Assembly: GCA_973895155.1 (NCBI GenBank)
Contig: OZ316894.1
Coordinates: 8,518,234 to 8,582,233 of the forward strand
Reading direction: 5' to 3'
Source: Marsupella aquatica
Lineage: Eukaryota; Plantae; Marchantiophyta
Length of the DNA: 64,000 nt
Under the pieces are notes generated by a model, which worked only from the letters and a program-made list of their open reading frames with translations, searched no databases and was not told where the DNA came from. Shown one piece after another: positions 929-27,000 of this stretch; positions within the stretch are counted from its first letter, which is position 1, and every line of letters starts with the position of its first letter. The position numbers were made by a program, and so were the translations under genes.

Positions 929-2455
<1,527 letters not shown>

Positions 2456-2786
2456 TGTAAGTTTCTGATATATTGATACGAGAATGACTGCCGAGGGGAA
2501 GAGAGGGGCCCCACATAAATACATGTCAGTGAGACATACGGATCAAGAATGATCGATGGTCACAAGAGAAAGGCAGATCAATCTACGATAGAAAAGGCAA
2601 AGTACAACCAACGATCAATGTGATCACTAAATACAATAGCGGATAATGCGCCGGGATAACTGGTGTAGTGGAGCTAGGACAAACTGAGTAGTGGAGCTGA
2701 TCCGAGTGGGATCTCCAAATGATGCTTTGGCACTTGGGAGCGTAGATCCAAGTAACTTCCTATGAAAGACTAAGTTACTGTCAACA
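2456..2786 (-). repeat. Copia 3' LTR (331 bp)
   Basis: TGTAAG...TCAACA. By-eye comparison gives 7 substitutions, all transitions, relative to 27795-28125. PPT AGCGAGGGAGGG (minus) is adjacent at 2787-2798. Confidence 0.95.
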
Positions 2787-2897
2787 CCCTCCCTCGCTCT
2801 AAGGGCTAAAGCGTTCCTAATCAGATAGGAAAAGACAGGGTATATGATGGCGTAGATACAGATCAGAATGTCGTGGACCTGATGGATATATATAGGT

Positions 2898-3365: not shown

Positions 3366-3399
3366 GATTAGAAAGATCCAGCACTCCAATGGCTGTTCG

Positions 3400-4057: not shown

Positions 4058-4399
4058 CACTAGTGGAAAATAGTGTCCTTAATGACTAGAATGAGGACTG
4101 AAAAACGAGTCATATGTACCAATATATGACTAGAGCTTTTCTGTCATACCTGCCTCGTCTTTTAGGACAGTCAATTAAGACAAATGACTAAAACTCTCAC
4201 CAGTCATTTATGGTAGTCCTAAATGACACAATATTTTTGAAATGACATATTGTTCTAAATGACTGAATGAATGGCCGTTAGTCATTTAGGTATATCTTTA
4301 ATGACACATATTTAAACAAATCATATTACAACACGTGGCAACTACGCATGGTTGTCATTATATGTCATTTTAGACATATCATAAATGACACAATAATAA

Positions 4400-4612
4400 A
4401 TCATTTAAGGTGTCATTTAGTGTGTCATTGAAGGTGTCGTACATGGTGTCATTAAAAATGTCATACAAGGTGTCATTGAGGGTGTCATATAGGGTGTCAT
4501 TGAGAGTGTCATTGAAGGTGTCATTGAGAGTGTCATACATGGTGTCATTGAGGGTGTCATACATGGTGTCATTGAGGGTATCATTGAGGGTGTCATATAG
4601 GGTGTTTTTAAG
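4400..4612. repeat. 12-bp tandem array (GTGTCATTGAGG-like), CACTA subterminal repeats
   Basis: About 17 degenerate 12-bp units containing TGTCAT. They generate the spurious NDTL and VSLR repeat ORFs. Confidence 0.9.
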
Positions 4613-4710
4613 TAATGTCATTTGGGATGTATTTAAGAGCTCATAGTTATATTCAAAATCACATACAATGAATCCACTTAAACCCTAAACAAAGACATCA
4701 CTTTGCGCAT

Positions 4711-4855
4711 CATCATTGTATTCAAAAATTCACACTCCAACATTCACAAGCTCTAATATAGAATAATTGAAAAAACAGAAGTCATCATTGTATTCATAAA
4801 TTCACATTCCAACATTCACAAGCTCTAGTATAGAACAATTGAAAAAACAGAAGTC
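4711..4855. repeat. ~72-bp tandem duplication
   Basis: CATCATTGTATTCA...AAAAAACAGAAGTC occurs twice in tandem. Confidence 0.85.
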
Positions 4856-4960
4856 TTTATGATGAAGTGATAGAAAGTACACATTTTTCACTCGCATGAG
4901 TGAAACAATGGTAACCAAAATATTCAAAAATTCTCTGTTCTATATGATCAGAGAAAATGT

Positions 4961-7956
4961 TCAACACTTCCGAAGAAACCTAGCATTCCACAATGTATTC
5001 ATTCCTAACACATTCCGTAAGCAGAGTTGTTTCTCTTCTTTGTTGGATATTGACAATGCTGCATCACCACAATACACTGCCTTAACTGATACTCGCACCC
5101 AAGGACTCTCAATCATGACACAATGAAATTTATCCTCTCCTGGTAACCCTGTCACTTCACCTCTAGCAACAACTGTAGAGCGATCCACAACGCTTCGTAC
5201 TTCTACAGCATCTCCTTTTGAAAACTGCCACACAAAATTGTTAGGACAAAATATTGTCTTGTAGTACTGATTTGGGCATATCATCAATTTAAGAACATAA
5301 ACCAACTGAAAATAAATTCACCTTTGTTGCTGGATTTGGGAAGAGAACTGGTCCTCGTTCACTAGGTGAGATAGTGATAGGGGTTAATTTCTTGAATCTC
5401 TTTGAAGGCCTACGTGGTGTAGCCTCTTGTTCTTGAATTGCATTTGACACTATCTGTTCATCTGTGACAGCAATCTCATCACTCTCACCATTACCAATGC
5501 TGCTTTGTACAATGCAAGGTTCCTGTAGTGCTCCCAAATTTTCTTCTCCCATACTTGGCTTTGGCTTCTGCCTTGTTAAAGTATCTGATTTCTCTCGCTG
5601 TGATACAGGATTCTCCCCTGAAGAAGCTACCACAAAACCAAACAATGAATGCTTATCTAGAAAACTTCATTCTAAATTGAAAAATAAATTATTGCATATG
5701 TAACATGTTTAGAGTATAAGTTTGTATGTTCTTACCATCACCATTACCTGAGAAAGTAAGAGAATGTTTCCTGCTACTACCTTTAGGCTCAACCACCACC
5801 TTAGTAGCAATTGCATTTGATAATTGCATATGGAACTCATTCTGTTGATTTTGTGCAATGAAAGAAGTCATCATAGATGTCAAATTGTCCACTTTGAATT
5901 CAAGTTTGGTTAAATTCTCCATAGACTGTTCAAGCTTGAGTAATCGAGCTGGTTCCTCAATTGTAGTTTCCCTGGACAGTGGAGTCTACATACACAAACA
6001 CACCATACAATGTCAATCATCAATGATAATTTGAACATCATGAATAACTGATAATCAAAATTGAATATATATACACAGATTTTCATTACATACCGCTGAT
6101 CCATGTGCAGATCCAATTCCAACAAAACTACTGCCTCGATGTTCACCACTGCCCATAGATGGACTAATCTGCACTAGGGGATTGGACTACTAGACACAAG
6201 TTTTGATGTAACAGGGCTCGTCATTCCTTTTGCTTTCTGGAAACACATAATCACATTCAAAGCAATTGGAATATTAATGAGAACTCATCATGTCATTATT
6301 TATTCCTATACTAGATAAACACTTCAATTCAAATGACAGTCTAGACCTGCAATGAGATGGACCATCTGAATATTCTTACCAATCTTTTTTTTGCTCCAGC
6401 AGCCCCTCCTCTTCCAAAATGCTCTTTGTTCACCACTTCTGCCCTCCTTGCTTTCATCATAGCACTCCTTGCAAGCAAAGTAGGACTATCAAAATGATCC
6501 ACCAGTCGTGCTCATTTCAATGGGTCAACATATTGAGGTCCTGGTTTGGAGCGATCACGTTTACATACATCCTTCCAATAAGTATTTAGTTTGTGACGTT
6601 CTCTTTTCAATAACGTCCGACAGTGACTAATAAATTTCTTGTCAAACACTGGCTGCTTATCTGGATACTCCCAATCTGCCTTCATCAATTTTTGCACATC
6701 CTCAATTATGTTTGGATCTTGTTTGTTCCAATCAGGTTCTGATACATCAAAAAGCCTCAAGACATTGGCACGTAGCTCCTCCATCCAATATGGTTTATTA
6801 GGATGAGAATCATCAATATCATTGTCATGAATCTGAAAAAAACACCACAAATGATAGTCATCAACATTGGGAATGAAACAAACACCCAATTACTTCTGAG
6901 TACACAAATGTGAAATGTGCAATGAAAATCTTACCGTTATCAATTTTCCCTTCTTATTGTCAGCCCTTCTTGCACTACCGGTTCTCTGGAATTGTTTTTT
7001 GGCTTGCCTAGATTCCCTGCGTTGCTCTATTGCAGTCTTTCTTCCCTCTACATACACAATGAGCATCCAATATTGATCATCCACAATTGCAAAATGAGGG
7101 ACAAGAAATATTACAATATAATAGGAGGACGCTTCATTGAATTTGACTTACCTGAACCCTGACTGGATGTCACTACTGCAGAGTGTCCAGATTTCCCAAT
7201 CGATGTTGATGGAACCACCACTATACACATGCAAACCACTGGAGTTATGAATCCAACATTCATATAGATCAACATTGAAAAATACATTAAAAATCTTTGA
7301 AATTACTTACATTCAAATAGCTGGCCAGTCATAGGGTCTTTGTAACATTGCACCATGCCACTCATGGAAGGTCCAACCTTTGTAGGGGTTTCTTTTGCAT
7401 CTGCCAAGCTCTTAGATGGAGGTTGCAGATGTTCCTGTCTAGATCAAGTTAAAACAAATGTTTTTAAACAGAATCATTACCAATGTCTATAGTTTCCTCA
7501 TAATGTTGGTGAAATGTAATAGGAATCTCACCTTGGATGAACTTTCTGGTTTCTCATCTTCACTGTACTCAGCATCAGTGTCATAATCTGATTCAGAGCC
7601 CTCATCACCAGACTCTGCCATACTCACTGAGGCAATTCTTGATAGTTTGGAACTCTGTCTCCTCTGTGTGGTAACCTCACTTCTAGGAGTTCGATGTGCA
7701 CTTGTTTCCTTCTTGCGCCCTACAGTCTGTGTTGTGCATTCAGTCTACATCAGAGAATATCAATGAATGAATGACAAGTATCAAAAACAAACTCATTGCT
7801 GATGAGCAATATTAACACATCTTTGCACATTAAAAACAACATGCAAGATTATACTCACATGAAATTGAAATTTTCTCCAAATATCTCCTTGAATTTTCTA
7901 TTGTTGTCTGTTACCTTCTTATTTCGTTCCTCCTCATATGGAGGTATTCGCTGCAT
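4961..7956 (-). CDS. CACTA second gene (TnpA/ORF2-like), multi-exon; exon boundaries approximate
   Basis: First exon MQRIPPYEEERNKKVTDNNRKF carries the YE..R...N motif typical of CACTA ORF2 N-termini. Many GT-AG introns on the minus strand. Includes exon ORFs 6512-6832, 5289-5986 and 4961-5250 (VVARGEV...FH...WVRVSV...DAAL...LW). Confidence 0.65.
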
Positions 7957-8040
7957 TCACTGCTAGACTATGGCATGCCATGTTAGTATGATCCCACTCC
8001 CAACTAAATGAAACTGGACTATACAGTATCTTCAAACCAT

Positions 8041-11000
8041 TCATTTCCTTTTATACTTTCTTTTTCCTTTGTCTGTAGTACTTGGTCCAGGCTCCTGTCT
8101 AGTTGTACAGGCTTCTGCCAACTCTATGTGAAACTTAGCATTGTCATCCATAGTATCATGGAAATCAACTTCCATGTAATCACCCAACACCCTTGTAGAC
8201 CTGGATTCCTTGTGGAGGATTGCCCTCCATGCAATCTCCTTATCATTTGGGTAAAAAAACACCTATTCTATCTGTCGTGGCAGTACATAGTCCATTTTCT
8301 TGGAAGCACCCAGCTCCTTCTGAAAATTTACTTGCCACAATCCAGACGCATCATATCTCATACTTGCAGTGGCTTTGGGAGTCCAAGATGGGTTTGCCCA
8401 CCTTCCTTTGAAAAGGACCACTTCCTTTATCAGAGGCCCATAGTTCAACACTAAGATGTCTGTCAACACCCCCACATATTGTACAGATTCATCTACTATT
8501 GCCCCTGACCTAATGACCCACTTCTCAGTGAATGTACAAGCCATCCCAGAATCAAAAGTCTTGAACCCAGATGAGTCACAATCAATCAAGGAACCTAGTG
8601 ATGGAATGGTCCTCCAATGGTGCCCATAGGCTCTACAGGCCCTGTACCGTAGTGCCTTCAGACTAGGTGGTACACTATACTCTGCCAACACCATTCGTTC
8701 AAACTCATTCTCAAAATTATGCCTTCTAATTGTCACTTCAAACCATTCTCTAAAAGGAGGCAACTCATCCAAATCAGAGGGATAAGGCACAGGATTCCTC
8801 CGATTTCCTGGATTCTTCATCCATTCTTTCCGGAAATCTGCTCTGTGCTTGGTAACTGCCTCCTTTTGATCATCATAAACCCTGCATGGCAAGAATGATA
8901 GTCAGCTCCTAGGCCCACACAATTTCTGCTCAAAACTCAATTTTGTTTAATAATAAACAACAGAGAATTTAACAATATAAATTAACCATGCTCATACCTA
9001 TACCATGGTTCCACCAGCTCTTCATTCTCCAGTATGTAATGATGCATAGTTATCATATCATTCCACTCCAAGGTGATTTGTTTTCCAGCTCCTTCCAAGA
9101 CAATGCTTGCAACACGAGGATTCTCCTCCAAGTCCCATGTTCTCATTCCTGTCCCCTTAACATCGATCATGTATTCAGAAAGGAATCCTAAAGATTCATC
9201 CAGAAGGTAGCCTTCAGCCATAGAAGCCTCTGGACGTGCCTTGTTTCGAACATAACCCTTCAAGGTCTTTAGATATCTTTCTATTGGGTACATCCATCTA
9301 ATGTTCACTGGACCACAGATGTCTAGTTCCTGAACCAGATGAATCAACAGATGGGTCATGACATCAAAGAAGCTTGGTGGGAAATGAATTTCCATAAGGC
9401 AGAGTGTGAATGCAACATCCATCATCACAGAGTCGTACTGTGAGGGATCCCAAACCTTGGCACAGATGGTACGCCACACATTGCTCACTCTGGCTATGGC
9501 CAACCGAACACCTTCATCAAGTAATCCCATTGTTGCCAATGGAAGGATTTGTTGCATGAGGTGATGGAAATCGTGAGATTTCAGCCCTGATAACTTCTTC
9601 TTAACTGTGACACATTTAGCCAGAGAACTGCTGAAACCAGTGGGCCCTTTAAAGGTCAACAATACCTCTAAGAACTTAGTCTTCTCTGTCTTACTGAGGC
9701 AGTATGGGGCTGGCGGCATGATCTTTGAATCTTTTTTTGGATCTGGATTTGGAACCAGCCACAGGTGTTCCCGCACGTCCATGACTTTCATGTCTTCTCG
9801 AACAGAAGGAGTATCCTTTGTCCCCAAAATAGTGTGCATAATGTTGTGTGCAAGATTCTTCTCACAGTGCATGGGATCCAAACAATGGTTGATGAGAAGT
9901 TTCTGCATTGGACGCACAGTTCAGTACAAACTAAGTTAGAATAAGAAATGTTACTCTTTGCTACTTAACATTAATACACACTGAGGGATTCAGTATGGGA
10001 AACCAGATACTTACACTCTAGTACGACAGCTTGTATAATCCAGTAACCCTCTTCACTCCATTCTTCTTTACTGGAGAGTTTTCATCATCCAGCGCATTCC
10101 CTGGTTTCTTCTCCACATATTTAGCGACCTTTTCTCCCCAACGTTTCCTATCAGAGCTGGACACTCTACACGGTGCAGCTCGTGCCTCTAGCTCACCATT
10201 AAAGTATTTTGCCATTTCCTTTGTGCAAAAATAGTGTCTCTGTGGTAACCAGCGATGATGGCCAGCAAAGAGTAACTTGCCTAACTGTTTTGAACCATGT
10301 GCCACACAATTTGGCCCACAAACCACACATCCTTTGTACCCTGCATGTTGTTGGCCAGAGACTAATCCATATGCAGGATAATCATTGATTGTCCACAATA
10401 CTGAAGCCCTTAGCTTGAACTCTTGTTGCAATCCTAGCCTTGGTAGAACATCAAAACAATCCACTCCTTCTGACCATAATGTCTCAAGATCATCCACAAG
10501 TGGAGCCATGTATACATCAAATTGTTCCTCGCTTACAGACACAGGACCTGGAATTAGAAGAGCCAGCATGACAAAGAACTTCTTTGTGGAAAGCCAAGGA
10601 GGGATATTATAATTCAACAGTAGGATTGGCCATGTAGACCAGGCAGTAGAATTATTTCCAAATGGATTTACCCCATCAAGTGCCAATCCCATTCGCACAT
10701 TCCTTGGCTCAGCAGTAAAAGCAAGGTCGATCTCTGTGTCCACATGTTTCCATGCCTTTGAATCTGCTGGATGTCGGACCATGTTGTCCTTGCTCTTGTT
10801 CTCATGATGCCAAGTCATTAGCTTAGATGTACCCTTAGTGGCATACAATCTCTTCAATCGAGGGATTATAGGGAAATATCTCAAGACCTTCACAGGCTGT
10901 AAAGAATTCCCCACTAACTTCATCTTTGGTTGATTACACTTGGAACAATTGTCCAACTCTGCAGTCTCATTTCTAAATAACATACATCCATTCTCACAGA

Positions 11001-12507
11001 CTGGGATTCTCTCATAGTCTAAACCCAATTTTCTCAGTAATTGTTTTGCAGCATATAGGTTTTTAGGGAGAGTGTGCTCTGTTGGCATTCCATGCTCAGT
11101 CAACAAAGACAACATGGCATTCACTCCCGTGTTCGAGAACCTATTGTTGTGACAGATGTTTAAAAATAACAACATGAAGGAAACTACATCTGTCTTACTG
11201 CCTGGAAATAAGGGTTTCATGGCTTCTTCTAAAGACCCTTGTAGAGGGACAGGATTTACAAGATGCCCTGCTGTAGGTGTGTCCTCAGCCCTGGTCTCAG
11301 CAGAGGGTGGATCTCCCTCATTCTCATCATTTTGAAACATTGAATCTATATCAAAAGGAGGATCATTATCCACATATTCGTCATACTCTTCAGAAGCTCT
11401 TGCCAATGTCTCCTGAAGTAAAACTTTGACCTGCTCTTCAACATCTATTGATGGCTGGCCTGAGTGGAATGCCTCTCGAGACATTCTTGCCCTCAGTGCC
11501 TCTGGACCAGAGCCCTGGGCCCCCAGCCTTTGTAAACTAAAGAGGTATATGTGCGTACACCCCCCTCCCTAGTACCCCTTATTATTTTTGGAAGCCTATA
11601 AAATTTCTCTTGTTATTCTTAAAAACTTAATTTTGGAGAATAAATATGCCCCTTTGAGATATTATAATTTCACATTTTACACCATTTATGAAAGCCTTGA
11701 AAAGTTATAAATTCATCATGTGCAAACGGTTCTAAAACTGACGGGAGTGTTTTGGAAGGGTTTTGGGTACATACATTTTTGTGTTCGTGACCCTTTAACC
11801 CCAAACTTCAACTTTGGGGCATTTCTGAACCACAGGGCAGGGTAGTCAGGGTTCAAAAGCTCCAAAGTCCTAAACTACTCTGAATCATAGATGTTGCAAG
11901 CATAATTATATGTCATATACACATGTTCCAATAAAGGGTGGCCACAAGGACCAATCCTATTGTGATGCGTGTCACATCCATATTACATTAACTCTTGAAG
12001 CATATTAACTTGGGCAATATTTATATAAGCCTATATTAGTTAGAAAGGGTTCTTTGAATAAAACCATCCCTTGATATTTCTAAGCCAATTATAAAAATTA
12101 ATCTCAAATCAGATTTTTTGCACCCTTCATCCGTTCGCACGTCCAGCCCATTATTAATAATGCTGGGGGCCCAGGGGACCAGAGTTATGGATGTAATTGG
12201 ATCTCCACTCCTCATCAGAAGAGTCTTCATCCTCTCCTACCCACACTTGACAGGCAGGGTAGCGGCCATATTTAAGAAGATGTTGTCGACTGGTCTTTCG
12301 AGTAGTCTTAACAATCCCTTTGCATTCCATGCAAGAGCAATACATTCTATGATCAGCACTACCAGAGCAAGCTGTCTGTTCCCGAGCCCATAAGTTATCA
12401 TCACGACGCTGTATTCGACGTGGATGGGAAAGAGGTAAACTTCTCAGGTTGTCTGCCTCTGTTGTATATGCAGTGTTATGTGACCCAACCTGGCTAGAAG
12501 AAGCCAT
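8041..12507 (-). pseudogene. CACTA Tnp2 transposase (transposase-associated domain, Transposase_21, DUF4218, DUF4216), disabled
   Basis: Motifs MYCSCMECK..HLLKYG, RHPADSKAW, LALDGVNPFG, INDYPAYG, LDPMHCEKN, GLKSHDFH, RWMYPIERYLK. Introns at 9903-10014 and 8882-8997. Nonsense codons at 10018-10020 (Y-TAG, expected W) and 8263-8265 (E-TAG-VFF, expected Q). MITE inserted at 11513-12176. Confidence 0.93.
11513..12176. mobile_element. 664-bp MITE with 15-bp TIRs and an 8-bp TSD
   Basis: CCCTGGGCCCCCAGC ... GCTGGGGGCCCAGGG flanked by GACCAGAG on both sides. Removal restores the transposase frame HNSGP-EALRARMSREAF. Confidence 0.95.
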
Positions 12508-13488
12508 GATTGCAGCACTACCTAATCAAAAACACAGTTGCACATCTTTCTTCTTTGACATCTTGCAGAGCATATGAATTGTTCTAGACAACTCCAAAAT
12601 CCTTCCATACCATCTTCTAGAGCGTCATCTGAAGCAAATGTGTGCACAAGTGAAGAATTAGACATACATTTGAGGTACTGGACTCCAACTGAAGTAAAGG
12701 CAGCTCCCACTTTAGCCCCGTTTGCCAATAGAATAGTTCATGCATGCCAACAACAGGTAAACAGATGACATATTAGCAACTTGATCAGAAATTATTTACT
12801 TGGGTACGTTACCTAATCTCATTTCATATTGTAAGTGGCATTGGGTATTTGAAGGAGATCTGAATTGTACAAATCAAAATGACAAAAGTTTACAAAACCA
12901 AATAAAAGCCTACCTCAACCAGATTTAGGGCAAGGGTGTTCACAGTAGTCAGCAATCTCGGACCCTTCAAAACAGTGAGTACAATAACAAACATTAATCA
13001 TAATGTCCAACAATCCCCTCCTTCATTCTTTGTCTTTTGAATTCATTTGTTGAAATGATCCTCTTCATCAAGGCAGTTTGTTGTGGGCAGGTACTAGAAT
13101 AGATTCCAGAAGGGTTTCATGTAATGTACATATTTAATTAAACATATAGTGTTTTTGTGCAGTAGTAAGAATGGAATACACACTCAGTCTTCAAAATCCT
13201 CAAAAATGAGAAAGTTTGAGAAAGTTTGAGAAAGTTCAGAGACCCGGGTTGAGAGCGTTCTTAAGGCTGTGGGTTTAGAAAGGCAATACTACAATACTTG
13301 AAAGACATTAAGTGAAGTTTGCCTTCTTATGGCCAGATCCCTGAAAAGGGACAACAAAACTTTTAAGACCTTGGGTGGATTTTAGGTCTTGTTCAGGTCA
13401 GTGTGATGTTTTTTAGTTTTTTTGTTATGTATCTCCATTCAGGCTCTTCACATGTTTGCCACTGACACTCTTAACAGTCATCATACAA

Positions 13489-13935
13489 TCAGAATTGATA
13501 CTGGTCTTTCTCCAGTAAGTGTTGCTCTACTCTAGGGCAAACAGTCTCAACCCCTGGTCCCAAGACTGGCTCATCATGGTGGAACATTATACAGGCACAC
13601 CTCCTCTGCAGCCTATTGTATCCATCCCGCCTATATATATCCCTTGGGCGCACTCGACATTTTGGGCAAAAATCCTCACAACTGTGGATATAGGCAGAGT
13701 AGCATATCTGCTCTGGTTGTACCACTCCATTATCAACTGCCACAATACAAAAACCTATGGGTAAGGGTGGAGCATCCAGAGTAATGGGCCGACTGTACGT
13801 GTCTCTATGTATAGGCGAAAACTCCCATTGCACAACAGAACTGGCAAGGACCAACCTCATTCCACTCAGCTTCAGGCGTAGCCTCTCAGCTCTGCCTTCA
13901 AGGTCAGCTCCCAAGCTGCTACGCGTCCTTGGCAT
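13489..13935 (-). CDS. Orphan Cys/His-rich ORF inside CACTA (~148 aa from ATG)
   Basis: ATG lies just after a splice-acceptor-like TTGTTACAG. Open frame contains HSCEDFCPKC...RRCACIMFHH. Family not recognised. Confidence 0.45.
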   Translation of the reverse strand: MPRTRSSLGADLEGRAERLRLKLSGMRLVLASSVVQWEFSPIHRDTYSRPITLDAPPLPIGFCIVAVDNGVVQPEQICYSAYIHSCEDFCPKCRVRPRDIYRRDGYNRLQRRCACIMFHHDEPVLGPGVETVCPRVEQHLLEKDQYQF

Positions 13936-14353
13936 CACTGTAACAAATACAAGAAGCAATAGCTTATCCAACCCAAACGCTTCAATGAATTTCATGCAAC
14001 AATTTAGCATTCAACTATTTCATACAATCACACAGTTTAGTCCATTTGAGTTTAGTACATTAGATAGTGTAGTCCACTTCATACAATCAGACAATTTAGT
14101 CCTTTTCATACAATCAAACAGTTTAGTCCATTTAATACAATCATCCTACTTTAGTCCAATTCAGCTTAATCCATTGAATCCAACTTGACATAGTACTCCA
14201 TTTTCATCCAACCAAAAACTCAGGTGCTCCATTGTACCCCTTTAGTCCATTTTTTTATGTCCAGTATACTTCCATAAGTCCTTAGCCCATTTTAAGTTCA
14301 GTATACTTTGTACTATGCAGTGTTTTCTACACAACTGAAGGCTTAATTATGAT

Positions 14354-15052
14354 CTATTTGAAATCATGTGGTGGCACCTCAGAACCCTCTGGAATGACAT
14401 GGCGATTGCAGTACACCATACGCCATGGTCCAATATCCCACGTTTCTCTACCCTTCACCCCTCTCTTGAGGTGTTTGTCTGCCTCTGGTCCCTCATCCCT
14501 GCACCACGCACGAGGGCACCTACGACAATCGATAAATTCCCAGATGCCATCCCGATACTCTTTGCAAACATCACAATAATGCCTTGGGCATATCAGAGCA
14601 GCGGGATGTGCATCTAAGTTCTCTGCATATCCCAAGAGAGGCAACTCCCTTGCCCTCAGTATGGTCCGCAGACAACCCACGTGATAGAAAGAAAAGCAAT
14701 CATCTTGTGCACATTGAACCACAAGGGGCTCATCTGTAGTGGGCTTTAGGGTTCGGCCAAGTAGTCCACAAGCAAAGCAACGACCTCGGTTCTGCTGGCA
14801 GAGTTCACAGAGCCACTCCTTGGCCCAATCATGCCCTCTAGAAATGGCAATGCGTGTGCACTCAGACCCATGGCCATCAGGCTCCTCGGGATCTTGCCCA
14901 GCAACTAAGTAATGGAAATGACGACTGCAAGGCCCATCGCAAAACAAAACAGTACCTCCCTCATCACATTCAAAACAACAAGGGGGATCCATGCAAAGGT
15001 GCTCTTTATGGGCAAACTTTGGATCCAGCCAGGCAGCAGCAGCTCGTGCCAT
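14354..15052 (-). CDS. EDM2-like composite PHD-finger protein encoded by the CACTA element
   Basis: Intact 232-aa ORF: CFECDEGGTVLFCDGPCSRHFH...C...WLCELC...CFACGLLG...VVQC..DCFSFYHVGC...ICPRHYCDVC...CRRCPRAW...W...MVYCNRH. Colinear with the EDM2/NSD-type PHD cluster. Upstream GT-AG intron at ~15055-15156. Confidence 0.8.
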   Translation of the reverse strand: MARAAAAWLDPKFAHKEHLCMDPPCCFECDEGGTVLFCDGPCSRHFHYLVAGQDPEEPDGHGSECTRIAISRGHDWAKEWLCELCQQNRGRCFACGLLGRTLKPTTDEPLVVQCAQDDCFSFYHVGCLRTILRARELPLLGYAENLDAHPAALICPRHYCDVCKEYRDGIWEFIDCRRCPRAWCRDEGPEADKHLKRGVKGRETWDIGPWRMVYCNRHVIPEGSEVPPHDFK

Positions 15053-17289
15053 GCCTGATGTGATGTGTGGATCTGCACAATTACCTTAAATATTACAAGA
15101 AGTCTAAGGAGAAGGGCAACAAACAAGTACAAAGATGGTATGCGTAGTGTACTTACCGTAATCTGATGTTTAAGTACACGTCAGAAGATGTCCTGCCCAA
15201 CTCAGTCTCACGGAGTAGAAGCAATGTCAAAAATAACTTGGCTCTGGTTTATGTGTTCTGCGCAGAGAGCAACAAGTTAAGCATACTTGGTAAATGTAGT
15301 GATCAATCAAGGAATTACCAATGCTGCCTCTAAATTCCTATGTACTCAATTTCTATTAGAGGTGTTGAGAAACAAACAAAATACGAGAGATTGAGTAGAA
15401 GAGCAAACATGGCTCAATGCAGTGGCTTAGGTAGAACCTCAGCAACAACTCTTACTTTGGTTCATTTAACTCCACGCAGAGCCGGGCTTTTTTCAATGAT
15501 GGATCAACAAAGACATATTATATTCGATGGGATCAACAGACAGACAACGTAATTTTGAATAGCAAAACTTAATCCGAAAAAGTTTTCAATTCAAACACAT
15601 CCTACAAATCACTCCCAACATCTCTTCTAAAGACAATGGGGGTTTCTCAGATAATCTCAACAACAAACCAATAACGATAGTAGACACACGACAATAATGC
15701 AAGCAAAATTGGAGCACGCCCACCTCCACTGGACCCTTGTTAGGTAGCACCACTACCAATCAGAGGTCCAATCTTCCTTAGAATCCTCAAAATTGATGCA
15801 AGCGGAAATGCAGGCAGGAATGCAGCTCCAATCGCACCTTGGCAACAACTAGTCTCTGCAAATATGTAGGTCCAATGTGGTTCCAACACAGGTAAGATTT
15901 GGGAAGAGTCAAAACTATCATGGATCTCCTCATAGCGAGCAAACCTTAGCAGTCACACAGTATTTAGTGGCTACTTTGAAAAAACATTAAAAAAAGTCAA
16001 TGCTCGCAGGTGAAGGAGTAGGATAGAAGGCAAATATATCAATTCTTTCCCTAAGCTTGAGCAAGCAATCCGTCGGAAAAGCAACAGAGACCTACCGCTA
16101 CATAGGAAATTAGATGTTGTCAAACAGAGCTTGGTCTTCAATTCAAAAGAGACCTGGGATAGACAGGACCGCAACTTTTTGTGAGGGAGGGGGGCGCTGA
16201 CTACAACGGATCAAGATTAGCACAACTGACCTTGTAGGCTATTGCAACTCCAATGTCCACCTCCAATTGGCTCAATGTTCAATTCGCAGGAAACAAGTAT
16301 ACTGCACGACATTGCATAGTAAGCACAGTATACCAAAAGGACCATGGCCAGACAATGACAGAAACAAATCAGTGAATATTATACAGGGACTGTGAATCCC
16401 AAGCCAACAAAGCAACAACCCCAACCCTGTACAGAGATCAATAACATTCCAGCAGCTCAAATCTGGTACAAAATGCTGGTATCTTTGTTTTTCATGATTG
16501 AAGAGCAAATTCCAGCAGACAAGGACTCGGAAATGAGAGATAGCAAAGTACCTAATAGCAAGGTACCCGAGGTAGAACATTTAGGCAGGGGTCGGAAATA
16601 GGGACATGCTTACACAAGCTCGATGTACATAACTGAATGACAAATGAGGTTGGGACTAATACTAGGCGCATTGGAAAGGGAGAACTTCAATTTACGATTG
16701 TAAGGGGCAGCATCCAGCAAAGGGGAAGCAAAAGCGCAAAATTTGCAGCATGGCAAAGGGGACAGGAAGCATGAAATCAAAGCATGACCGGCAGGGGGAA
16801 GAAGCACAGTAGGTGGACAGAGAATGCACAACTATCCAAGATACCTCAAAGATGCGCTGTATTTGACGTGGATGAAATGGTAGCAGGTAGCGGCAGTGGT
16901 GTTGCAGCAACTCCCTCCGTAGCTCTAGCCAAAGGCGTAGAGCAGTCTAACTCTCGTTCACGTTGCAGCTCCAACATGCAGGACGGTTAGCATTGCCCAA
17001 GTGCGCACAGCTTGAGCTCCCTTTCACCTGGTTTTTCCCTAATGACAACCCGCGGCCAAAGCTAGTCCCAAACTCAAAAGCCTCCCTATTCACAGTGCAC
17101 AACTTCAAATCAATCCCACCGTCCTCACCGATCAGTCCCACCTCGCGAATGGCTTGCGGATGGAATGCAGAGACTAAGCGCAAGAGACCGGGCCACACTC
17201 CATCCACACTGAAAAGATGGGGAGCAACATGCACGACCTTCAAGAAACATAGGCGCAGCGGACCTCAACTCCTTCGCCCTAAAACGTAA

Positions 17290-17500
17290 TAGCGACCTCA
17301 CAACGACCTCACAACAGCGACCTCGTAGCAGCGACCTCACAGCAGTGCCCTTGCACCTCAACTCACTGCTCAGCACCGAGCTTGCGCGTAGCAGCGACCT
17401 CGCACTTCAACTCACCGCTCAGCCCCGATCTTCAGTAGCAACCTTGCACCTCAACTCGCAGCAGTGACCTGACTCGCACCTCCACTCGCTACTCAACTTC
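17290..17500. repeat. Short degenerate tandem repeats (GCGACCTCACAA / GCACCTCAACTC) in the CACTA leader
   Basis: Repeated 12-14-bp motifs visible directly in the sequence. Confidence 0.7.
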
Positions 17501-18179
17501 ACGAGAATACCTAACTCCCAACGTGAACTTGTGACTTGTGTGACCGGTGTGACTGAACGGGTGACCCTAAACCCAGGTCTGAATTTCTTATGGGAAAATG
17601 GGATCCAAGGAAGATAGGGCCAGGGCATGACAGGATGACACATGGTTGGCAAATAAGGCTTTGGGACACCAACAGGAATTTTACTGGGATGTTGAGGGTA
17701 GTAATGGAGTCAATCTCCAGGTTCCATAATACCCCTCTAACATTATTATCCCCTCGCCAATCAATTTTAGGAGATGGAGGAAGTTTGGGGCGAAATGCTT
17801 TTTTGATGACACAAATACTTGTCACAAGTATGTATTACCATTTACAATAACCAATGACTCAAAAACTTAATGTACTGGTGGCCTTTGAAACCCATTGATG
17901 TGGAAACCTAGGTGCCAAAATTCCCAAATAGTATATGCATGTAACACAAAACAAATTACAAACATATGCATAGGTTTAGGATGTACATCCTCATTGACAC
18001 GTCACAATTACCTAAGTGAGGAAGTCATTTGGTGGACATTCTCATAAAATTAGTCACTCACATATTAAATCACTAATCTCATAGTCCCCAGTCCTAGGGT
18101 TGACAACATAAATGACTTGTTTTGATGTCATTGCCCAAAACTTAAACTCACGGCACTCCATAATAGCCAAATCCAATAC

Positions 18180-19330
18180 ATTCTTTGTGGGTAGCATCCT
18201 TAATGGTGGGCTCCTATCACCAATCTGACCAATCCCGCATCCAAGCCCCCAAAGAGTCATATTGTCCATGGCATGCGTGACTGCCGCATTGCCATCAACA
18301 ATGACTCATTTTCATGTCAAATGCATAAATGACATATTAGAGGACTGCACAAATCACCAAAAAGTGCACTCACTCGCAAAATGACTCGGAATCCCTTGGG
18401 TATAACCAAATGGGAGTGATATGGACCACTTTAGGTAAACGACTCCAAAGTCATACAACTTGGGAGTGTTTTGCCCAAAGTTGGGTGACTCCCTTCCAAG
18501 GTGCAAAAATTTTGCTACAAAAAACCTTTAGGAGGCAAAGTGGCATAACTAGTGGCGTAAGGTTTGAGAGTACCCTATCCCGCACCATGTGGAGTGAATA
18601 GCATCCCTAATGGCCGGCTACGATCACAAATATTGCCAATCAGCCCCCGACGGCCCAAACAAGTCATATTACCCATGGCATGCATGACTTCAACATTGAC
18701 ATCATGAATGACTGCGTTTTGTGTCATTTGCATGAATGACGTCTCTCGGCACTCCCAAAATGACAAAACCCTTAGTCACGTGCACAAATGACTCTAATTC
18801 CTTTCCAAATGACCAAGCAATAGTGGTTTGCACCCCTTCAAGAAAATGACTCCAAAGTCATACAACTTGGGAGTGTTTTGCCCAAAGTTGGGTGATGCTC
18901 TTCCAAGGTGCAAAATGTGTGTTTTGAAGGTGCAAAAGACTGCATAAATGACAAAAATATTCATTCACACGCACAAATGACCCAAAATCCTTTACAAATG
19001 ACAAAATGAGTGTGGTTTGCAACTGTTTGGGCAAATGACTCCAAAGTCATACAACTTGCAAGTGTTTTGCCAAAAGTTGGGTGATGCCCTTTCAAGGTGC
19101 AAAAGTTGGGTCATAAAAACTATAGCGAGGCCAAATCCCGATAACTAGTGGCCCAGAGTTTATGCCTTCTACATCCCGCACCATGTGGAGTGGGTAGCAT
19201 CCCTAATGGTTGGCCCCTATCATCATTATGGCCAATCAGACACCGGAGGCCCTTAGGAGTCATATTGTGCATGACATACATGATCACAACATTGACATCC
19301 CAAATGATTTATTTTCATGTCATTTAGTGG
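18180..19330. repeat. Complex internal direct repeats of the CACTA right arm
   Basis: GACTCCAAAGTCATACAACTTGGGAGTGTTTTGCCCAAAGTTGGGTGA at ~18441, ~18849 and ~19038. A TAGCATCCCTAATGG block occurs at ~18193, ~18599 and ~19195. Confidence 0.85.
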
Positions 19331-21571
19331 CACTTGCCAAATGACTAGAAAGTTGAGTGAAAGCATAAATGACTTACAATTCTTTGCAAATAACAGTCCG
19401 CGTAATTGGAAAAATGACAATAGCAAATACAGGCATCTAGCACCTAAACCCTAAACCTACACCAGATAATGTTATCTGTTAAGTCTAAATATATTTAAAA
19501 TATAATTTGTGTGTGCCCCTAGTCTTTATAGTACCATGCGTGTTGGATAGCTAATATATAATATCCTACAAAGTTAAATCATATACTAAAACCCTAGACC
19601 TCAAAATAGTCATATATGTTGTGGGAGAAATGAGACAAAGAGTTGGTTCCATCTTTACTCTTGGTAGAATATGTACATGTGGCTACGGCCTAAGTAGTTA
19701 GGGTAGTTACATAGGTAGTTATCCCAAAGGTAGACTTAACTCAAGTATGAGTTACAACACTCCCCCTTTGTAACATTGGGGTTGAAATGTTACAATCAAG
19801 AGTCTACTTTGGGTATATTCAGTGGTATACAATAGGTTTTGTTTATGTCTAGCCTATTTTATAAATGGTGTAGCCATCTCAAGTCTACTATAAATGAATG
19901 TCAAGCTTCTCCTAATAGATGTCTTATAATTCATGTTGCATGGTAGAGTGTAAGTGGGGGATGTAACCTCATTAAAACCTCCCCTACTTTCTTTGTGGGA
20001 GGAAAGAGTATTACCATCCCCATGGGTGAAACATAATTGGGTTTAAGCATATAGTGTATGTGTAATTTCTACAAAGTCTCTTAAGGTGCTTGTCAGTACT
20101 ATAGGCTGGTTGAGGATCTTCCTTAGTTGATTGTTTCTCGTGTCTCCTTCCAATCGGGAAATGGATACTCCTTGATGGTCACCGATTACATGCCATGACA
20201 AAGTAAAGTATTAGTACAAAATGAAGATGATATGGTGTAATCCATGGCCTTGGAATTGGATTGGGTGTCTAACCCTAGATTTGGTGTGGGCATAACCTAT
20301 TTGCACCACATCACGTACCATATCCACAACATAGGGTTATCATATTGGGGTATGGCGCACCATCTCTTATGGTGCCTTACCATGCCATGTCTCACCTTAT
20401 GGTACCTTATGACCTGGTATTGTACCTCATATTATCATATGGTACTTTAATATCCAGTATACCTCATCAAGTATTGGTAAGTGATTGTGTTAACACCATG
20501 TTCAATCATTTATAAAAATTCCTTAGATTTCATGATTTGCCATATGCATGGAATAGAGTTCCATTTTTAGGTATTCATTGGTGCGAAAGGCACTTGTGCA
20601 ATAGGCACATCCCATGGGTTACATTGCTTGATGTCAAGTCTTACTTGAGGTCTCCCCCTCAATTTGTCATTTATTTTTCCTTTCTGGCTGGGTGTGCAGT
20701 AGGCACCCATTTGCTTCCATGTGCAGTAGGCACGTTGGGAAAAACAATTCTCCCCCTGAATTTATGAAATTAATTGGTGGAAGTAATCATCATTTGTCGC
20801 CATGTAGGTTCTGTAATTTAGTTTCTTTCTTTATACTTCATGCCTTGTTGTTTGGTTTTTCTTGCCTTTTGAAGAGAAAGTCTCTTTGTTCTTTAGTTCT
20901 CCATTACTTAGTGTAAAATGGTCTTCTTAGAAGAAAATGTGGAGGACTTTCCTTTGGTTTGATGGCTTCTCTTTGTTTGCCTCCTTTGCCCGGCGTCTCG
21001 TCTGTAGCCTGTACCACGATCTCCGTCTGCATTGGACGTCCTTCTCTCTCCTGGCGTTCCTCACGTTCTCTCTTTGGTTTTTCGGGTTTGTGCTTCTTTC
21101 AATGTTCTTGGATTTATCCTCCTTGCCTTTGGTGCTTATTGTTTCTCCTCTGTCTCGCATTCTTTCCTTCAAAGTTTTCTCCCTTCGCGTTTGATCATGG
21201 TCTGTCTTTATATGTTCGCGATGCTGCCTGCCTTGCTCACGATCTGCGTTCGATTTCTGTAGTGTCTTCTCTCCTCTTATCTTTTCAATTGGGAATTAGG
21301 CGTAACTATGGGTGTTCCTTATGAATCAAGCTTCCGTATGGGGTCGCCTTCACGGACTGGAAGTAGGAGGTCTGATGACTCATTCCAAAACTTGTTCCAA
21401 AATGCAGATGCGTTAGTATAACCACGTATCATCTCGGCAAACGCCCAGTGTGCCTCACTTGGCCCCCGAAACCAAAACATTTTGCGCCTGTCGAGAGAGC
21501 TTCACAAATATGATTGACGGAAACTTCCCTACATGTCGTCGATCTTGAATGACGGAGCATGCTTCATCTTG

Positions 21572-22317
21572 TTATCGAATTGTAACGTAACGGTTAGTTC
21601 CATGCTTTGCCCAGTGCTCCTTCAAATCGACAGGATAATTTACATTTATCCCTTCGGAGCCGAGTTGTTCCAAAAAGTTCATGGAGATCATAGTAGTGCA
21701 ACGCGAGGACTGCCAGCCCCCGTTACCCCATCTGTAACACTGCTGTCTCACACCTATACAGGAGCAGTGGGGAATAGGGTATCGCACATTATCAACGTCG
21801 TGAACATCATCGTTCGGGCCCTTCAGGTAATCGGCCTTGTCGCTATCTCCAAGCTCCAAACGATGCTCCTGGGGAGAACGACATGATCTTTTCGAACGCA
21901 CTGTGCGATCGAGCGTAGATTTCACTATTAGCTTCCTCTTCCTAGGAAACCCACAAACTGACTCTTTTGGCGTCGCCGATCTTGCCAAGGTCACTTTGCT
22001 CTTGAACAACAACACTGTACCGTGTGGAAGACAAGGGAGCCTAATGAAAAACTCCTACAATAGTACAATTCTTTTCATACTCAGCGGATGGAAGAGCTTT
22101 GAATCTTTCACCAATGGCCTCTTTTGGACAAGGGTGTTTTGTTCGCTGAAATATCAAGAGCTGTAACAGCAGCATCGCGTTCCTCCATGGCGGAATCTCG
22201 ATCAACGTAAGCTACATCACATAGCAGAAGAGCAGCGTCTCTCTCCTCATATGCAGCTATTCTCTCCGTGATAGCCAAATTTTGCTCCAAGATAGTTGCA
22301 TCCCGTGCGGCTATCAT
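21572..22317 (-). pseudogene. BPC: Captured class II BBR/BPC (BASIC PENTACYSTEINE, GAGA-binding) gene, degenerate
   Basis: Alanine zipper IAARDATILEQNLAITERIAAYEERDAALL...RDSAMEERDAAVTAL. C-terminal PIPHCSCIGVRQQCYRWGNGGWQSSRCTTMISM...VDLKEHWAKHGTNRYVTIR*. The middle has frameshifts or stops, and there is an internal deletion. Confidence 0.9.
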
Positions 22318-23444
22318 TGGCTATCGAGCGAGGCCTGCCCCTATGAGGTCGCGATGTCCTAATCGAATTCTTCTTTCTGCTTTTTGATTGTCTTCTCTCT
22401 ATTGCTGTCGTCTTGCTCTTCTTATCCTTTTCACCCTGGAGGGGGATGCTGCTTTTCAGGATCGGTTACTCTCGAAGGGCGAAGGACTCATCAATGACTG
22501 ACGAAGAATGTAATCTTGTGATCCTCGGTTGGGGATAGACTTCCGTTCTGTTCTACATTCTTCTTGAGTTCTCTTTGAATCTTCTAAGAAAAATTTCCTT
22601 ATCTCCTGCTATCCTTACGAGTTCCTTATGGAATTGAGGCTGTGATCTGTGCCTTGGATCGGTTTGCTTGTGTGATGATCTCGCTGCCTGAAGTGGAGGT
22701 CGCTACTTTCTATGGTCTGCAAGTCGCGACTTTCTTCACTTGCCTCTTTTCGCACTTCTTACGCGATTGCTCCAAATCCTTCTTTCGTTTTCCAGTGATG
22801 CGACCAACGGGTTTAATTTCCCATGTTTGTCCTGCTTTTCTGTCAGCATAGTGTCGGGAAAGCGTAGTGTCGGGAAAGAAATCACAACATCCTGTTACTG
22901 CTTCATCCATTTCGAATGCCTCCAGCGGTAGACTCGAGTAGAACTGGAAGCAAACACAGGAAACAGAGTAGATTGTCGTACTCCAATCTGTTGTGCGCTC
23001 ACGACCAGCCGTCAGTGAGCTGGTGTTCGCTAGAAATGTTATCAATCAAAGATGTAGTTGGTGTGAGGGTCTTGCTCGCCAGGGAATGAGAAAACACCTT
23101 GGCCACCAACTTCCGACTCCTCAAAATGGCTGGAGTTCCAATCGCTGGCTCATTTCCAGATTCGTGAGCGCGTCAACAACACTGGCTCTGACTGACTGTT
23201 GCTGTTGCCTTACTGCTGTACCGACTTGAAAAGCGTGCACCGAATAAGATGGCGCCTTGATATTCAATTCACCATAGCCGGGATCAATTCTTCCTTGGCC
23301 TTACTCCCAAAGAAAAATTGCTCGCGCAGCGCTTCAAGCAGCTCTCGCAAAAAAAACTTTGGCACATTCGAATCACATCTTTTCCTTCTTTCTTCGTCTT
23401 AGAGTGAATCAGTCATGGCCTAAAAAATTCAGCCAATCTTAGGC

Positions 23445-23458
23445 TCGTGCTGATAACG
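23445..23458 (-). promoter_or_regulatory. Primer-binding site complementary to the anticodon arm of tRNA-Ile (half-tRNA priming)
   Basis: Plus-strand TCGTGCTGATAACG versus the plant tRNA-Ile(AAU) arm TCGTGCTAATAACG, recalled from memory. It sits directly against the 5' LTR. Confidence 0.75.
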
Positions 23459-24000
23459 TGTTGTGGGAGAAATGAGACAAAGAGTTGGTTCCATCTTTAC
23501 TCTTGGTAGAATATGTACATGTGGCTACGGCCTAAGTAGTTAGGGTAGTTACATAGGTAGTTATCCCAAAGGTAGACTTAACTCAAGTATGAGTTACAAC
23601 AATATATTGTTTATCATGTCATTTATCACTTTAGGTTTAAATGACTACTAAAATTTTTAAACATTGATATTTCCATATTTGTTTTAGTAGTCATTAGTCA
23701 CCGTCGTCCTAAATGACTTCCCAAATGTCAAACATTGATATGACAAGGTTATTGTCATTTGTGTCATTGACAAAGATTGTCCAAAATGACTACAACTCAT
23801 TGGTGTTGTCATTATAGTAGTCACGGTCATTTGGCTCATTGGTTTAAATGACCCTATTGCAATTATTAGTCATTTTTTTCACCCTGTCATTATAGACAGT
23901 CATTTATGTGTCATTCATGTCCTGTCATTAAAATATATTGTCATTTGGGCACAACGGTCATATGTGTCATAGTCATAAAAGGCCCCATTTTCTACTAGTG

Positions 24001-27000
24001 AAATGATTTTACCAACCATCCGGCAATAAAGATGAGCATCGACAGGAGGAGCAGACGAGTCAGTAGAGAGCACGGTGCCAGTTGGTAAGGGAGTAAGGGC
24101 AGGAGTGCAAGAATCCATGTTGAACTCTTGTAGAATTTCTTTGCAATAACTATGTTGATGAATTGTAATGCCAACGTCGGATGTATCAAATTCAATACCT
24201 AAGTATTTCTGAATCGGGCCAAGGTCCTTCATGCTAAAATGTTGACGTAGCTCAGCTTGGTGTGAAGCAGTGACAGCGTCATTACTGCCAGTGATATAAA
24301 AATCATCAACATGAGTAAGAAGTATAGTGAGATCAGTCCCAACATGAATGTAGTAAAGATTGTTATCAAGCATGCTACGTGACCAACCAAGCTTGGTTAG
24401 GAGGGCATGTAACGTGTCGTACCAAGCCTTCGAAGATTGTCAAAGACCATAGAGAGAGTTATTCAGGAGACAAACCAAATGTTCTTTACCCCGAAGACGA
24501 TGACCAGGAGGTTGTCGCATATAAATCTTTTCATGAACTTTGCTGTTGAGAAATGATGTATCAACGTCCATGTGAATTATAGTCCAGCCATGAGAAGCCG
24601 CAATGGCAGTGATGGTGCGAAGAGTAGCCCATTTAACCACGGGAGCAAAAGTCTCAAAATAATCAATGCCATGTTGTTGATAATTGCCTTTAGCAACAAG
24701 ACGAGCTTTGAGGCGAGCATGTGTAGCTGAGATGGGCTTGCGTTTGTAAACCCACATAGACGGAATGGCCACTTTGCCGGGAGGTAATTCAACCAAGGAC
24801 CAAGTATTAGTTTTGTGGATGGAATCAAGTTCTTCGCCCAAAGCTGCAGACCAGCCTGGATGTAATAGGGCCTGTTTGAGAGAAATATTGTCACTGACAG
24901 TCGGATCATCAGTTTCGATAGCACAAGCCAAAAGTTCGAGTGGAGGTGGTTGAGCATGGAACCCAAGAAGTCGAGAGCTGTGGGAACGGAGCCTGCCAGA
25001 ACATCTTGGTCCAAAAGAAATTGAAGCATCTGCGGTTGGAATCGCAACAGTCAGAATCAATAACCAAGTCATCAGGTGGTTGATCTGGAGGACAGTCGTC
25101 CACATCTGGACCTGAAGCAGGAACGTCGAGGGTTTCAGCAGCTGGAGTAGAGTGATCAAATGACGATAGGTCCCCAAAATCAAGAGAAGTCGGGATCGGT
25201 CCAGTAACAACAGAAATTCCAAGTTCAGTTTCATCAAAATGAACATCTCTACTAATGAGGATTTTACATCTAAGAGGTGAATAACAACGATAACCCTTGG
25301 TGTTGGAATCATAGCCAACAAATATGGCCTTAATTGACTTGGGTTCGAGTTTGGACCGAAGGTGAGCAGGAACATGTAAGTAAGCAGAACAGCCAATGAT
25401 ACGTAGGTGACTAACATCGGGTTTAACACCAAGAAGCTGCTCATAAGGGGTGGTCTTATACAGAGCACGAGTAGAGCAACGATTGATGATGTATGTAGCA
25501 GATAGAACCATTTCTTCCCAAAGGGTAGCTGGAAGGTGTGCACCAAAACAAAGGCTACGAGCTGCTTCTAATAAAGTATGATTTTTTTGTTCTGATAAAC
25601 CATTCTGGTGTGGGGTGTAAGCCACAGTGAGTTGACAGAATATGCCTTTTTCACAACAAAATTGCTGGAAATCAGAGGAAAGATACTTGCCACCCCGGTC
25701 TGTACGCAAACAGCCAATCTGGGAGCAAAACTGATTCTCAACAGAAGCATTAAATTGCTTAAAAGAAGCAAGAACCTCTGATTTGAAACGGAGAAAGAAA
25801 GTCCAAGTATATCTTGTGAAATCATCAGTGAACATGAGAACATAGCGAGACCTAGTGAGAGACGGAACGCGAGCTGGTCCCCAAACATCTGAGTGGACAA
25901 GCTCAAATGGTCTGGTGGTTTGAGTTTTGGTATGTTTAAGAACTCGTTCACGAGTTTGCTTAGCTTCCATGTAGGTACAACAAATAGTCATTACGGGTGA
26001 TAGAAGAGGTACCCCATCAACCAGTTTGCTAGAGCTCATGTGAGATAACTTTTGGTAGTGAATGTGTCCAAGACGACGATGCCAAAGCTCTGCATCAGAA
26101 GTTGGGGTAGTGACAATGTGACATTGCGGGTCCAAAAGATGATCTGGCTGCTTCGGTGGAGGTTTACGGACCAAGGTATATAGACGACTTATAGGGTCAC
26201 GTATGCCTTGCAAACAAATTTGACGATGTTGATTGAAGACACGACACTCTGAGGATGTAAAACATATAGTGTATCCTAGATCCGCCACATTGCCAACTGA
26301 GAGCAGACTACGCCTAGCACGCGGCACATACAAAACATTTGAAATTTTATTGTCATCAAAAATGAGGGTGCCCTTGCCCTTGATGTCCAAAGTGGTTCCT
26401 CCGGCAGTGGCAACAGAAGAACCGGAAGAAGATGGTACAAAGTTGGTGAGGCCAACTGAATCACCAGTGAGGTGAGTGTTGGCTCCGGAATCAAAGATCC
26501 ATTCTAGATTAGGAGGTGTTGCTAGAACTGACGTAAAATTGGCTTCAAGAACCTGATCAAGAACCTGGTCAGCAGTGATTCCAGTGTCAATCTCAGTAGC
26601 ATCAAAGTATTCTTCGGTAGCTATGTTGCGTTGTGCAACATCAAGATTTTTTTCAACGAGATTGGCAGTACGCCCAGGTCCAATATTGGCATTACCCATG
26701 CGAGCAGTAAGACGTTGGAGTTCAGATTCTAGACCATGAAAAGGGCAGGTGCGAGCAATGTGAGTTGGATCACCACAAGTGAAACAGACAACACCACCTC
26801 GGCCTCCTCCAATAGCATTGTTGTATGCTGGAAAACCTCGTCCCCCTGCCATAGTGTTGTTGTAAGCAGGAAGACGACCACGTCCTCCTCTACCACCACG
26901 TCCACCAAGGATGGGTCCTCGACGGTTGTAACCACGTCCACCTGCATTGTTGGGACGTGCAAATTGTGGCTGGAATGTACAAGCAAAAAATGCTTCCTCT

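Follow-up and report, generated by a model that had tools for sequence, protein, structure and literature searches.

Chromatin-related accessory genes of transposons

Chromatin accessory genes are already known from MULEs (VANC), Spm (TnpA), red-algal Plavaka elements (SET) and fungal EnSpm elements (TET/JBP). VANC, which is carried by VANDAL elements of the MULE group, probably stems from a host chromatin regulator (MAIN, PMC13547354) and is described as binding family-specific DNA motifs (PMC10398659). Within the CACTA superfamily, TnpA of Spm is reported as an accessory product that arises by alternative splicing or has a gene of its own (bioRxiv 10.64898/2026.08.24.746577). It is an HTH DNA binder that derives from the transposase. 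Separate chromatin-related genes are found in EnSpm/Plavaka elements of red algae (PAG2 SET and adenine methylase) and of fungi (TET/JBP), and are described as predicted writers or erasers. PHD domains occur in some other TE families.

The CACTA element described here lies in the window, by which we mean the whole 64,000-nt stretch of DNA that was analysed, and carries a gene for a stand-alone protein with three predicted EDM2-type PHD fingers. Like VANC, it is a transposon-borne accessory gene that probably goes back to a host chromatin regulator, but its predicted product is a PHD module with no detected DNA-binding domain, in a CACTA element. It differs from TnpA in being an additional gene of likely host origin, and from the EnSpm/Plavaka genes in that it occurs in a land plant and encodes a predicted reader devoid of catalytic domains. 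The full texts searched yielded no EDM2-type or stand-alone PHD gene in any CACTA element, and the term 'PHD' is absent from the main text of a 962-protein Spm survey, an Arabidopsis TE-protein atlas and a gene-capture review; a precedent may exist in subscription journals, Repbase entries or supplements. An earlier note on this DNA had stated that no CACTA with such a gene was described; this holds for EDM2-type readers in the literature searched but not for chromatin accessory genes of CACTA/EnSpm elements, which are already in print.

The CACTA element and its genes

The ends of the element, CACTAGTGGAAAAT (4058) and, on the reverse strand, CACTAGTAGAAAAT (24000), form 14-bp TIRs (13/14 identical), and the element displays a 3-bp AAA target duplication on both sides and TGAC-rich subterminal repeats at each end (Table 1). 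The short TIRs starting with CACTA, the 3-bp duplication and the TnpD-like Transposase_21 transposase, broken in this copy, place it in the CACTA/EnSpm superfamily. It has split a copia retrotransposon, the RT of which lies on one side and the RNase H-like part on the other, in agreement with the earlier note. From the 24000 end, the TIR and subterminal repeats are followed by a CpG-rich stretch, the PHD ORF, ORF2, the transposase and an exon-like region; the PHD ORF thus lies inside the TIRs, on the transposase strand and upstream of the transposase, as had been reported. We found neither internal TIRs nor a pair of direct repeats around the PHD gene that would mark it as a separate nested element. 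Scanning of 19 further minus-strand frames (12.5-18.3 kb) revealed no SET or other domain, and no second CACTA PHD copy was found within the 64-kb window.

Table 1 Features of the CACTA element and of its insertion site (positions in the window)
Feature	Position	Strand	Evidence and remarks
copia retrotransposon, insertion host of the CACTA element	2451..28089 (ends approximate)	-	LTR pair with 8/300 differences; gag, integrase and RT Pfam matches
CACTA/EnSpm DNA transposon	4058..24000	- (gene strand)	19.9 kb including two nested insertions; TIRs, AAA duplication, subterminal repeats
Multi-exon coding-like region in TnpA position	4961..7744	-	TGA stop at 6512-6514; TnpA identity putative
TnpD-like transposase gene, broken	8041..12507	-	Pfam Transposase_21 2.6e-67, DUF4218 3.8e-36, Transpos_assoc 7.1e-5
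MITE within transposase coding exon	11513..12176	.	664 bp; 8-bp target duplication
ORF2, second accessory ORF	13489..13935	-	148 aa; Cys/His motif; between PHD ORF and transposase
PHD ORF, single coding exon	14354..15052	-	232 aa; three tandem EDM2/NSD-type PHD fingers
Predicted 5'-UTR intron	15055..15156	-	GTAAGT donor; acceptor at 15055 or 15073
Candidate promoter/first exon	16900..17540	-	Inferred; GC- and CpG-rich with short tandem repeats; GC 0.55, CpG o/e 0.84
Small LTR element nested in CACTA subterminal region	19617..23601	.	Identical 143-nt LTRs; ATATA duplication

Among long proteins, the transposase is closest to one of Calypogeia fissa (59%), which makes a liverwort host likely. 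The transposase gene contains in-frame TAG stops at 10018-10020 and 8263-8265, so that the two nonsense codons and the MITE noticed earlier are both present. The earlier note had also pointed to the contrast between the open PHD ORF and the broken transposase, an argument that we rejected as uninformative because 232 codons stay open with P=0.68 at the transposase's stop rate. The putative TnpA region matches nothing in Pfam, and tblastn with 40 long CACTA proteins as queries gave no match to it. ORF2 has one homologue (P0161, 57% identical), the aligned start and end of which are the same, and a conserved HSCExFCPKC motif; it has no Pfam match, belongs to no known family and shows no relation to the PHD alignment, and its AlphaFold model is unusable (pLDDT 41). 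The ATG of ORF2 is located 2 nt downstream of a pyrimidine-rich AG, and all three start codons (PHD ORF, ORF2 and transposase) follow an AG acceptor at a distance of 2-14 nt. CpG o/e is 0.24-0.27 in the transposase against 0.84 in the candidate promoter stretch.

Several other features of the window are recorded here as side observations. The small LTR element, two frames of which were scanned and gave no retroelement Pfam match, contains a broken, CpG-rich piece of a GAGA-binding BBR/BPC gene (21575-22054, minus strand; PF06217, E=9.5e-34), which is a second captured chromatin-related gene within the CACTA element. The non-coding stretch 15678-16185, where depth is raised in the sequencing runs X3 and X4 (see below) and 11-bp insertions occur, may be a leader exon that has been conserved, or a regulatory element. 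Outside the CACTA element, the window holds an intact 495-codon F-box/LRR host-like ORF (59551-61038, plus strand), a 387-codon frame with no Pfam match that gives the impression of a retroelement end (55417-56580, plus), a broken DDE_Tnp_4-like mobile-element remnant with a weak match (38085-38912, plus) and two diverged copies of one repeat family (32071-32835 and 53537-54001), one of which has a 22-nt inverted repeat at its bounds.

The PHD ORF runs open from ATG to stop over 232 codons, and none of 300 shuffles of window positions 12501-19600 (7.1 kb) yielded a frame as long, which bears out the earlier description of the ORF as intact. In Pfam it matches PHD_NSD (PF22908, E=1.2e-8, passing the cut-off) and, more weakly, PHD, PHD-1st_NSD and PHDvar_NSD. 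The three tandem fingers (residues about 26-85, 92-158 and 160-218) have the ligand spacing of EDM2, and homology extends over the whole cluster (hhalign 99.7%, 193 columns); the profile searches suggested earlier therefore do recover PHD and EDM2. No catalytic or DNA-binding domain was detected in the protein. The sequence does contain the GT-AG intron that the earlier note placed upstream, and it offers an alternative acceptor; as both acceptor readings run into a stop just upstream, the predicted intron would belong to the 5'-UTR and be non-coding. In diverged copies, the donor motif and both AG acceptors are kept while adjacent letters are replaced.

Of the 24 zinc ligands, 22 are kept, comprising all 16 of fingers 1 and 2 and six of finger 3. 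Contrary to the earlier note, according to which finger 3 was devoid of its final H/C ligands, the final C215/H218 pair is retained, and it is ligands 5 and 6 that are altered: the family has C184 and E/D/K187 where 138/139 host rows have H and 136/139 have C, respectively. As judged from its ligands, finger 3 is remodelled, not truncated. H194, which is family-specific and conserved in all five family rows, may replace the lost ligand, although this is a guess. D22 and D30, which are common to 108 and 128 of 139 host rows, are kept in finger 1. Two stand-alone relatives of the same length (P0002 and P0003; 68% and 56% identical), which come from other data sets, possess all 22 retained ligands.

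The predicted model of the PHD protein has a mean pLDDT of 83. In structure it is matched best by the PHD-C5HCH tandem of NSD2 (Z 5.3, rmsd 2.5, 76 aligned), followed by the Ehd3 tandem PHD (Z 4.2, rmsd 4.2, 104 aligned); the comparison tool itself rates a Z of 4-5 as middling. Foldseek ranked PHD tandems first, none of them at E<=0.001, and a PDB sequence search gave weak PHD matches only. The Atlas placed the protein in Streptophyta PHD_NSD clusters (0.92). The NSD and Ehd3 tandems are the best fold matches to fingers 2-3, and the C5HCH fingers of NSD3 and NSD2 likewise have Cys at ligand 5; however, identity is low and the sixth-ligand His of NSD is not at that place in the CACTA protein.

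Conservation and descent of the PHD ORF

Copies of the PHD ORF were examined in contigs of four public runs (X1 to X4) from two studies, the runs representing relatives of the source (the best one shares 0.45 of sampled words). The numbers of contigs on the ORF were 138, 81, 374 and 90 per run, of which 21, 11, 34 and 14 were less than 90% alike; the ORF is therefore not restricted to this copy, a possibility that the earlier note had left open. Summed depth, which is a property of contigs and does not equal copy number, was 2,447-12,857 over the ORF and 0-1,799 over the flanks in X1, and 16,034-51,110 and 494-13,795, respectively, in X3. In three of the runs the summed depth is highest at the ORF; in X4, ORF and flank values overlap. 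The flanks (13.9-17.7 kb) are likewise multi-copy, but the coding part is found at >=80% in more sequence than the flanks are: the ORF is kept across subfamilies with diverged flanks. In X4, contigs of similar depth (855-952) span 14010 to 17122, which indicates that the ORF and the region upstream of it travel in one abundant subfamily. Among the contigs shown, none joins another PHD copy to a transposase or a TIR. As a side observation, P0004, a 128-aa truncated near-copy of P0002 on a contig of its own, may be a decayed copy, as expected of a TE family. Of two metagenome searches, a pattern scan gave 223 matches with no relative confirmed, and a motif scan gave no tblastn match for the PHD, ORF2 or transposase pieces among the at least 119 loci listed.

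The variation among copies points to purifying selection. The 40 of 82 variant sites that are listed comprise 24 synonymous and 16 non-synonymous changes and no stops; third positions hold 28 of the 40, and no indel rows are present. For these 40 of 82 sites omega is about 0.2 (0.18-0.26, p 1.7e-7 to 2.7e-5), far from the value near 1 that would have counted against the interpretation of the earlier note; as a bound, if the remaining 42 sites were all non-synonymous, omega would be 0.67-0.95 and not significant. When the sites were split at a share of 0.65, those segregating among other copies gave 19:9 synonymous to non-synonymous changes (omega 0.17, p 5e-6) and window-specific differences 5:7 (omega 0.5, p 0.19), again for 40 of 82 sites. 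The family is thus constrained, while the copy in the window may be relaxing or decaying.

The source of the gene was sought with a profile search of 1.84 billion representatives, which returned 227 matches at E<=0.001, two of them close. Those named among the 20 looked up are EDM2-like or PHD-type proteins of plants and algae, and the best named matches outside the family are liverwort proteins of Riccia, Marchantia and Calypogeia. Identity to the nearest host protein is <=33% in a search library that does not include the proteome of the source species itself, and none of the 1.84 billion representatives is a near-identical donor; the near-identity to host EDM2 considered in the earlier note was thus not observed among the host proteins found.

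From a set of 160 proteins, 16 with short matches were removed prior to alignment, and careful trees were computed for hand-picked sets of 40 and 27 of the remaining 144; several of their rows are unnamed, and the group labels are the analyst's own assignments. In the 27-row tree the family groups with six liverwort paralogues carrying a DPP motif at 100/99, and the corresponding group of the 40-row tree, with long-branch rows included, has 84/93. A grouping of the family with the long EDM2 proteins of liverworts is rejected only at the border of significance (p-AU 0.047). A FastTree of all 144 segments, which left the family on an unresolved long branch, was set aside. The stem branch of the family is about 3-4 substitutions per site long (about 4 in the 27-row tree), so its function may have changed.

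The family and the DPP paralogues share the DPP motif, the CRRCPxAW motif and a cluster at the C-terminal position. An RFD-like N-terminal part is present in 5/6 of these paralogues and a C-terminal EDM2 domain in 0/6, while profiles of both EDM2 ends have no match in the ORF or in the six frames of the element, which sets the CACTA protein apart from EDM2 proper. The alignment and the end profiles thus corroborate the earlier assignment to the PHD cluster of the EDM2 family with no other EDM2 domain; as to its phylogeny, the EDM2 family stands, but in the trees the protein falls, by a long branch, within the liverwort paralogue clade (100/99 with 27 rows) and not with canonical EDM2. The liverwort paralogues (Mp1g03210, Mp4g03050, Riccia R1sor_003797, Calypogeia CAM6087769.1) resemble the CACTA protein in the three-finger cluster, 22/24 ligands, the two motifs and the position of the cluster near the C-terminus. 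EDM2 and EDM2-like proteins are distinguished from it by the <=33% identity, by the RFD-like and C-terminal domains that it lacks, by its remodelled finger 3 and by its single coding exon within a transposon. Stand-alone EDM2-like proteins exist in hosts as well (Marchantia Mp4g03050, 280 aa; Brachypodium, 311 aa; Miscanthus, 287 aa), and the PHD-only architecture alone is therefore not unique. The likely donor of the gene is an EDM2-like paralogue of a liverwort, not EDM2 proper, and the capture was probably an ancient one. As a separate observation, P0007-P0011 and P0013 form a liverwort clade of EDM2-like paralogues that end at the PHD cluster, including PHD-only Mp4g03050, and our literature search found no paper on it.

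The gene is multi-copy and, for the 40 of 82 sites classified, under purifying selection, as an accessory gene would be; it shows neither the near-identity to a host gene (<=33%) nor the neutral decay (omega about 0.2) of a passive Pack-CACTA capture. Judged from this variation, the PHD ORF is a selection-maintained accessory gene and not a recent passive capture. That the element has a functional accessory gene stands on much firmer ground than any single mechanism.

Possible functions of the PHD protein

The earlier note had named H3K9me2 as the mark that EDM2 reads; for the PHD protein, this specificity is unsupported since the fold cannot tell the mark. According to a comparison of NSD proteins, the NSD2 tandem binds H3K4me0/H3K27me3, that of NSD3 prefers H3K9me3 and that of NSD1 binds a protein; H3K4me0 reading in NSD2 is marked by an acidic residue two places before the first Cys (PMC11724302). 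This position is Pro in the PHD protein, as it is in the DPP motif of the liverwort paralogues. Because the NSD1, NSD2 and NSD3 tandems differ in their ligand and many liverwort TEs are described as carrying H3K27me3, a specificity for H3K9me2 cannot be taken as given; in liverworts, the mark that is read may plausibly be H3K9me or H3K27me3.

We tentatively favor, at just short of an even chance, a reading in which the PHD protein binds H3 tails on the copies of its family and, with an element-encoded partner, supports their full-length expression. One promoter near 17.5 kb would give rise to a non-coding leader, which splicing would join to each of four coding parts (PHD ORF, ORF2, transposase and downstream gene); such a shared leader with alternative splicing or polyadenylation, as in Spm, is suggested by the ATGs that closely follow AG acceptors. 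For transposase to be made, transcription in heterochromatin would then have to continue beyond two poly(A) regions that lie upstream. The PHD protein would be an adaptor that works with the element's own proteins and keeps silenced copies expressed, a role suggested by the lack of a catalytic or detected DNA-binding domain. Finger 1 would read the H3 tail, and the remodelled finger 3 may constitute a new protein-contact surface which, via an element-encoded DNA binder, would supply the family specificity that a bare reader lacks. The reading of full-length expression is based on (i) a layout that would demand read-through, (ii) the report that Arabidopsis Spm elements, when activated, keep H3K9me (bioRxiv 10.64898/2026.08.24.746577) and (iii) the role of EDM2's complex, which does such a job for hosts by promoting distal polyadenylation through heterochromatin (PMC7472560). 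Recruitment of the host AAE complex itself is doubtful because the RFD-like and C-terminal EDM2 domains are absent. A more specific proposal, possible but rather doubtful, is that the EDM2-derived reader with its re-engineered finger 3 and the orphan Cys/His ORF2 make up a two-gene chromatin module that recognises the repressive mark on the element's own copies and uses it either as a go-ahead for full-length transcription or as a landing signal; this form of counter-silencing would work through a reader, unlike the DNA-motif-based VANC and TnpA.

Other explanations account for part of the same evidence. The PHD protein might instead bind the transposase and tether the transpososome to nucleosomes with a given mark, which would guide copies to repeats, where they cause little damage. 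The insertion of this copy in copia and a reader with no effector domain fit such a tether, and a Kelch-PHD partner gene has been proposed for the Transib ancestor of RAG1-RAG2 (PMC4411706), in the same wider transposase clade (PMC12730594); RAG2 is similar in having a PHD in a transposase partner gene but is unrelated outside the PHD class. The insertion is, however, a single one and thus an anecdote, which was already the basis of the insertion steering proposed in the earlier note, and a PHD occurs in 0/40 of the long CACTA transposases compared. We regard targeting as unlikely. Still less probable is a loss of histone reading altogether, with the fingers serving as a protein-binding scaffold or nucleic-acid binder in transposition or splicing: the very long stem branch, the remodelled finger 3 with its family-specific H194 and the equivalent tandem of NSD1, which is reported to bind a zinc-finger protein and not H3 (PMC11724302), would agree with it, but finger 1 has preserved the host-conserved D22 and D30, and fingers 1-2 all 16 of 16 ligands.

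That the gene is a passenger, i.e. a captured host fragment amplified along with a successful element, with a selection signal that comes from conserved host copies or display bias, is very unlikely. Pack-CACTA capture is well known (PMC13317346), stand-alone EDM2-like host proteins such as Mp4g03050 and those of Brachypodium and Miscanthus exist, and the selection counts cover 40 of 82 variant sites; against this, no near-identical donor is found in 1.84 billion representatives, the synonymous excess occurs among high-depth variants, the ORF is conserved where the flanks diverge, and splice motifs persist in diverged copies. The least probable reading is a decoy, in which the PHD-only protein would compete with host EDM2-like proteins for the mark or for partners and loosen silencing genome-wide. 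It would suit a reader with no other EDM2 domains, and EDM2 is reported to repress some DNA transposons, e.g. Mu1 (PMC3632883), but the same source has EDM2 promoting some TE transcripts, so that blocking it could backfire; identity to host proteins is <=33%, and global anti-silencing has been argued to be costly for transposons (PMC10398659).

The plant counter-silencing factors in the literature consulted, VANC and TnpA, recognise DNA motifs. A histone reader kept by a TE, in our favored reading of H3-tail binding in support of full-length expression, would, if true, represent a second route that uses the histone mark itself, with a module from the very family that lets hosts transcribe through heterochromatin. 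The arms race between TEs and hosts would then extend to liverworts, where H3K9me and H3K27me3 both cover TEs. The PHD protein is small, encoded by a single exon and predicted to fold well, and so lends itself to direct tests of mark specificity and trans-activity in Marchantia; the finding also draws attention to an unstudied clade of EDM2-like paralogues in liverworts.
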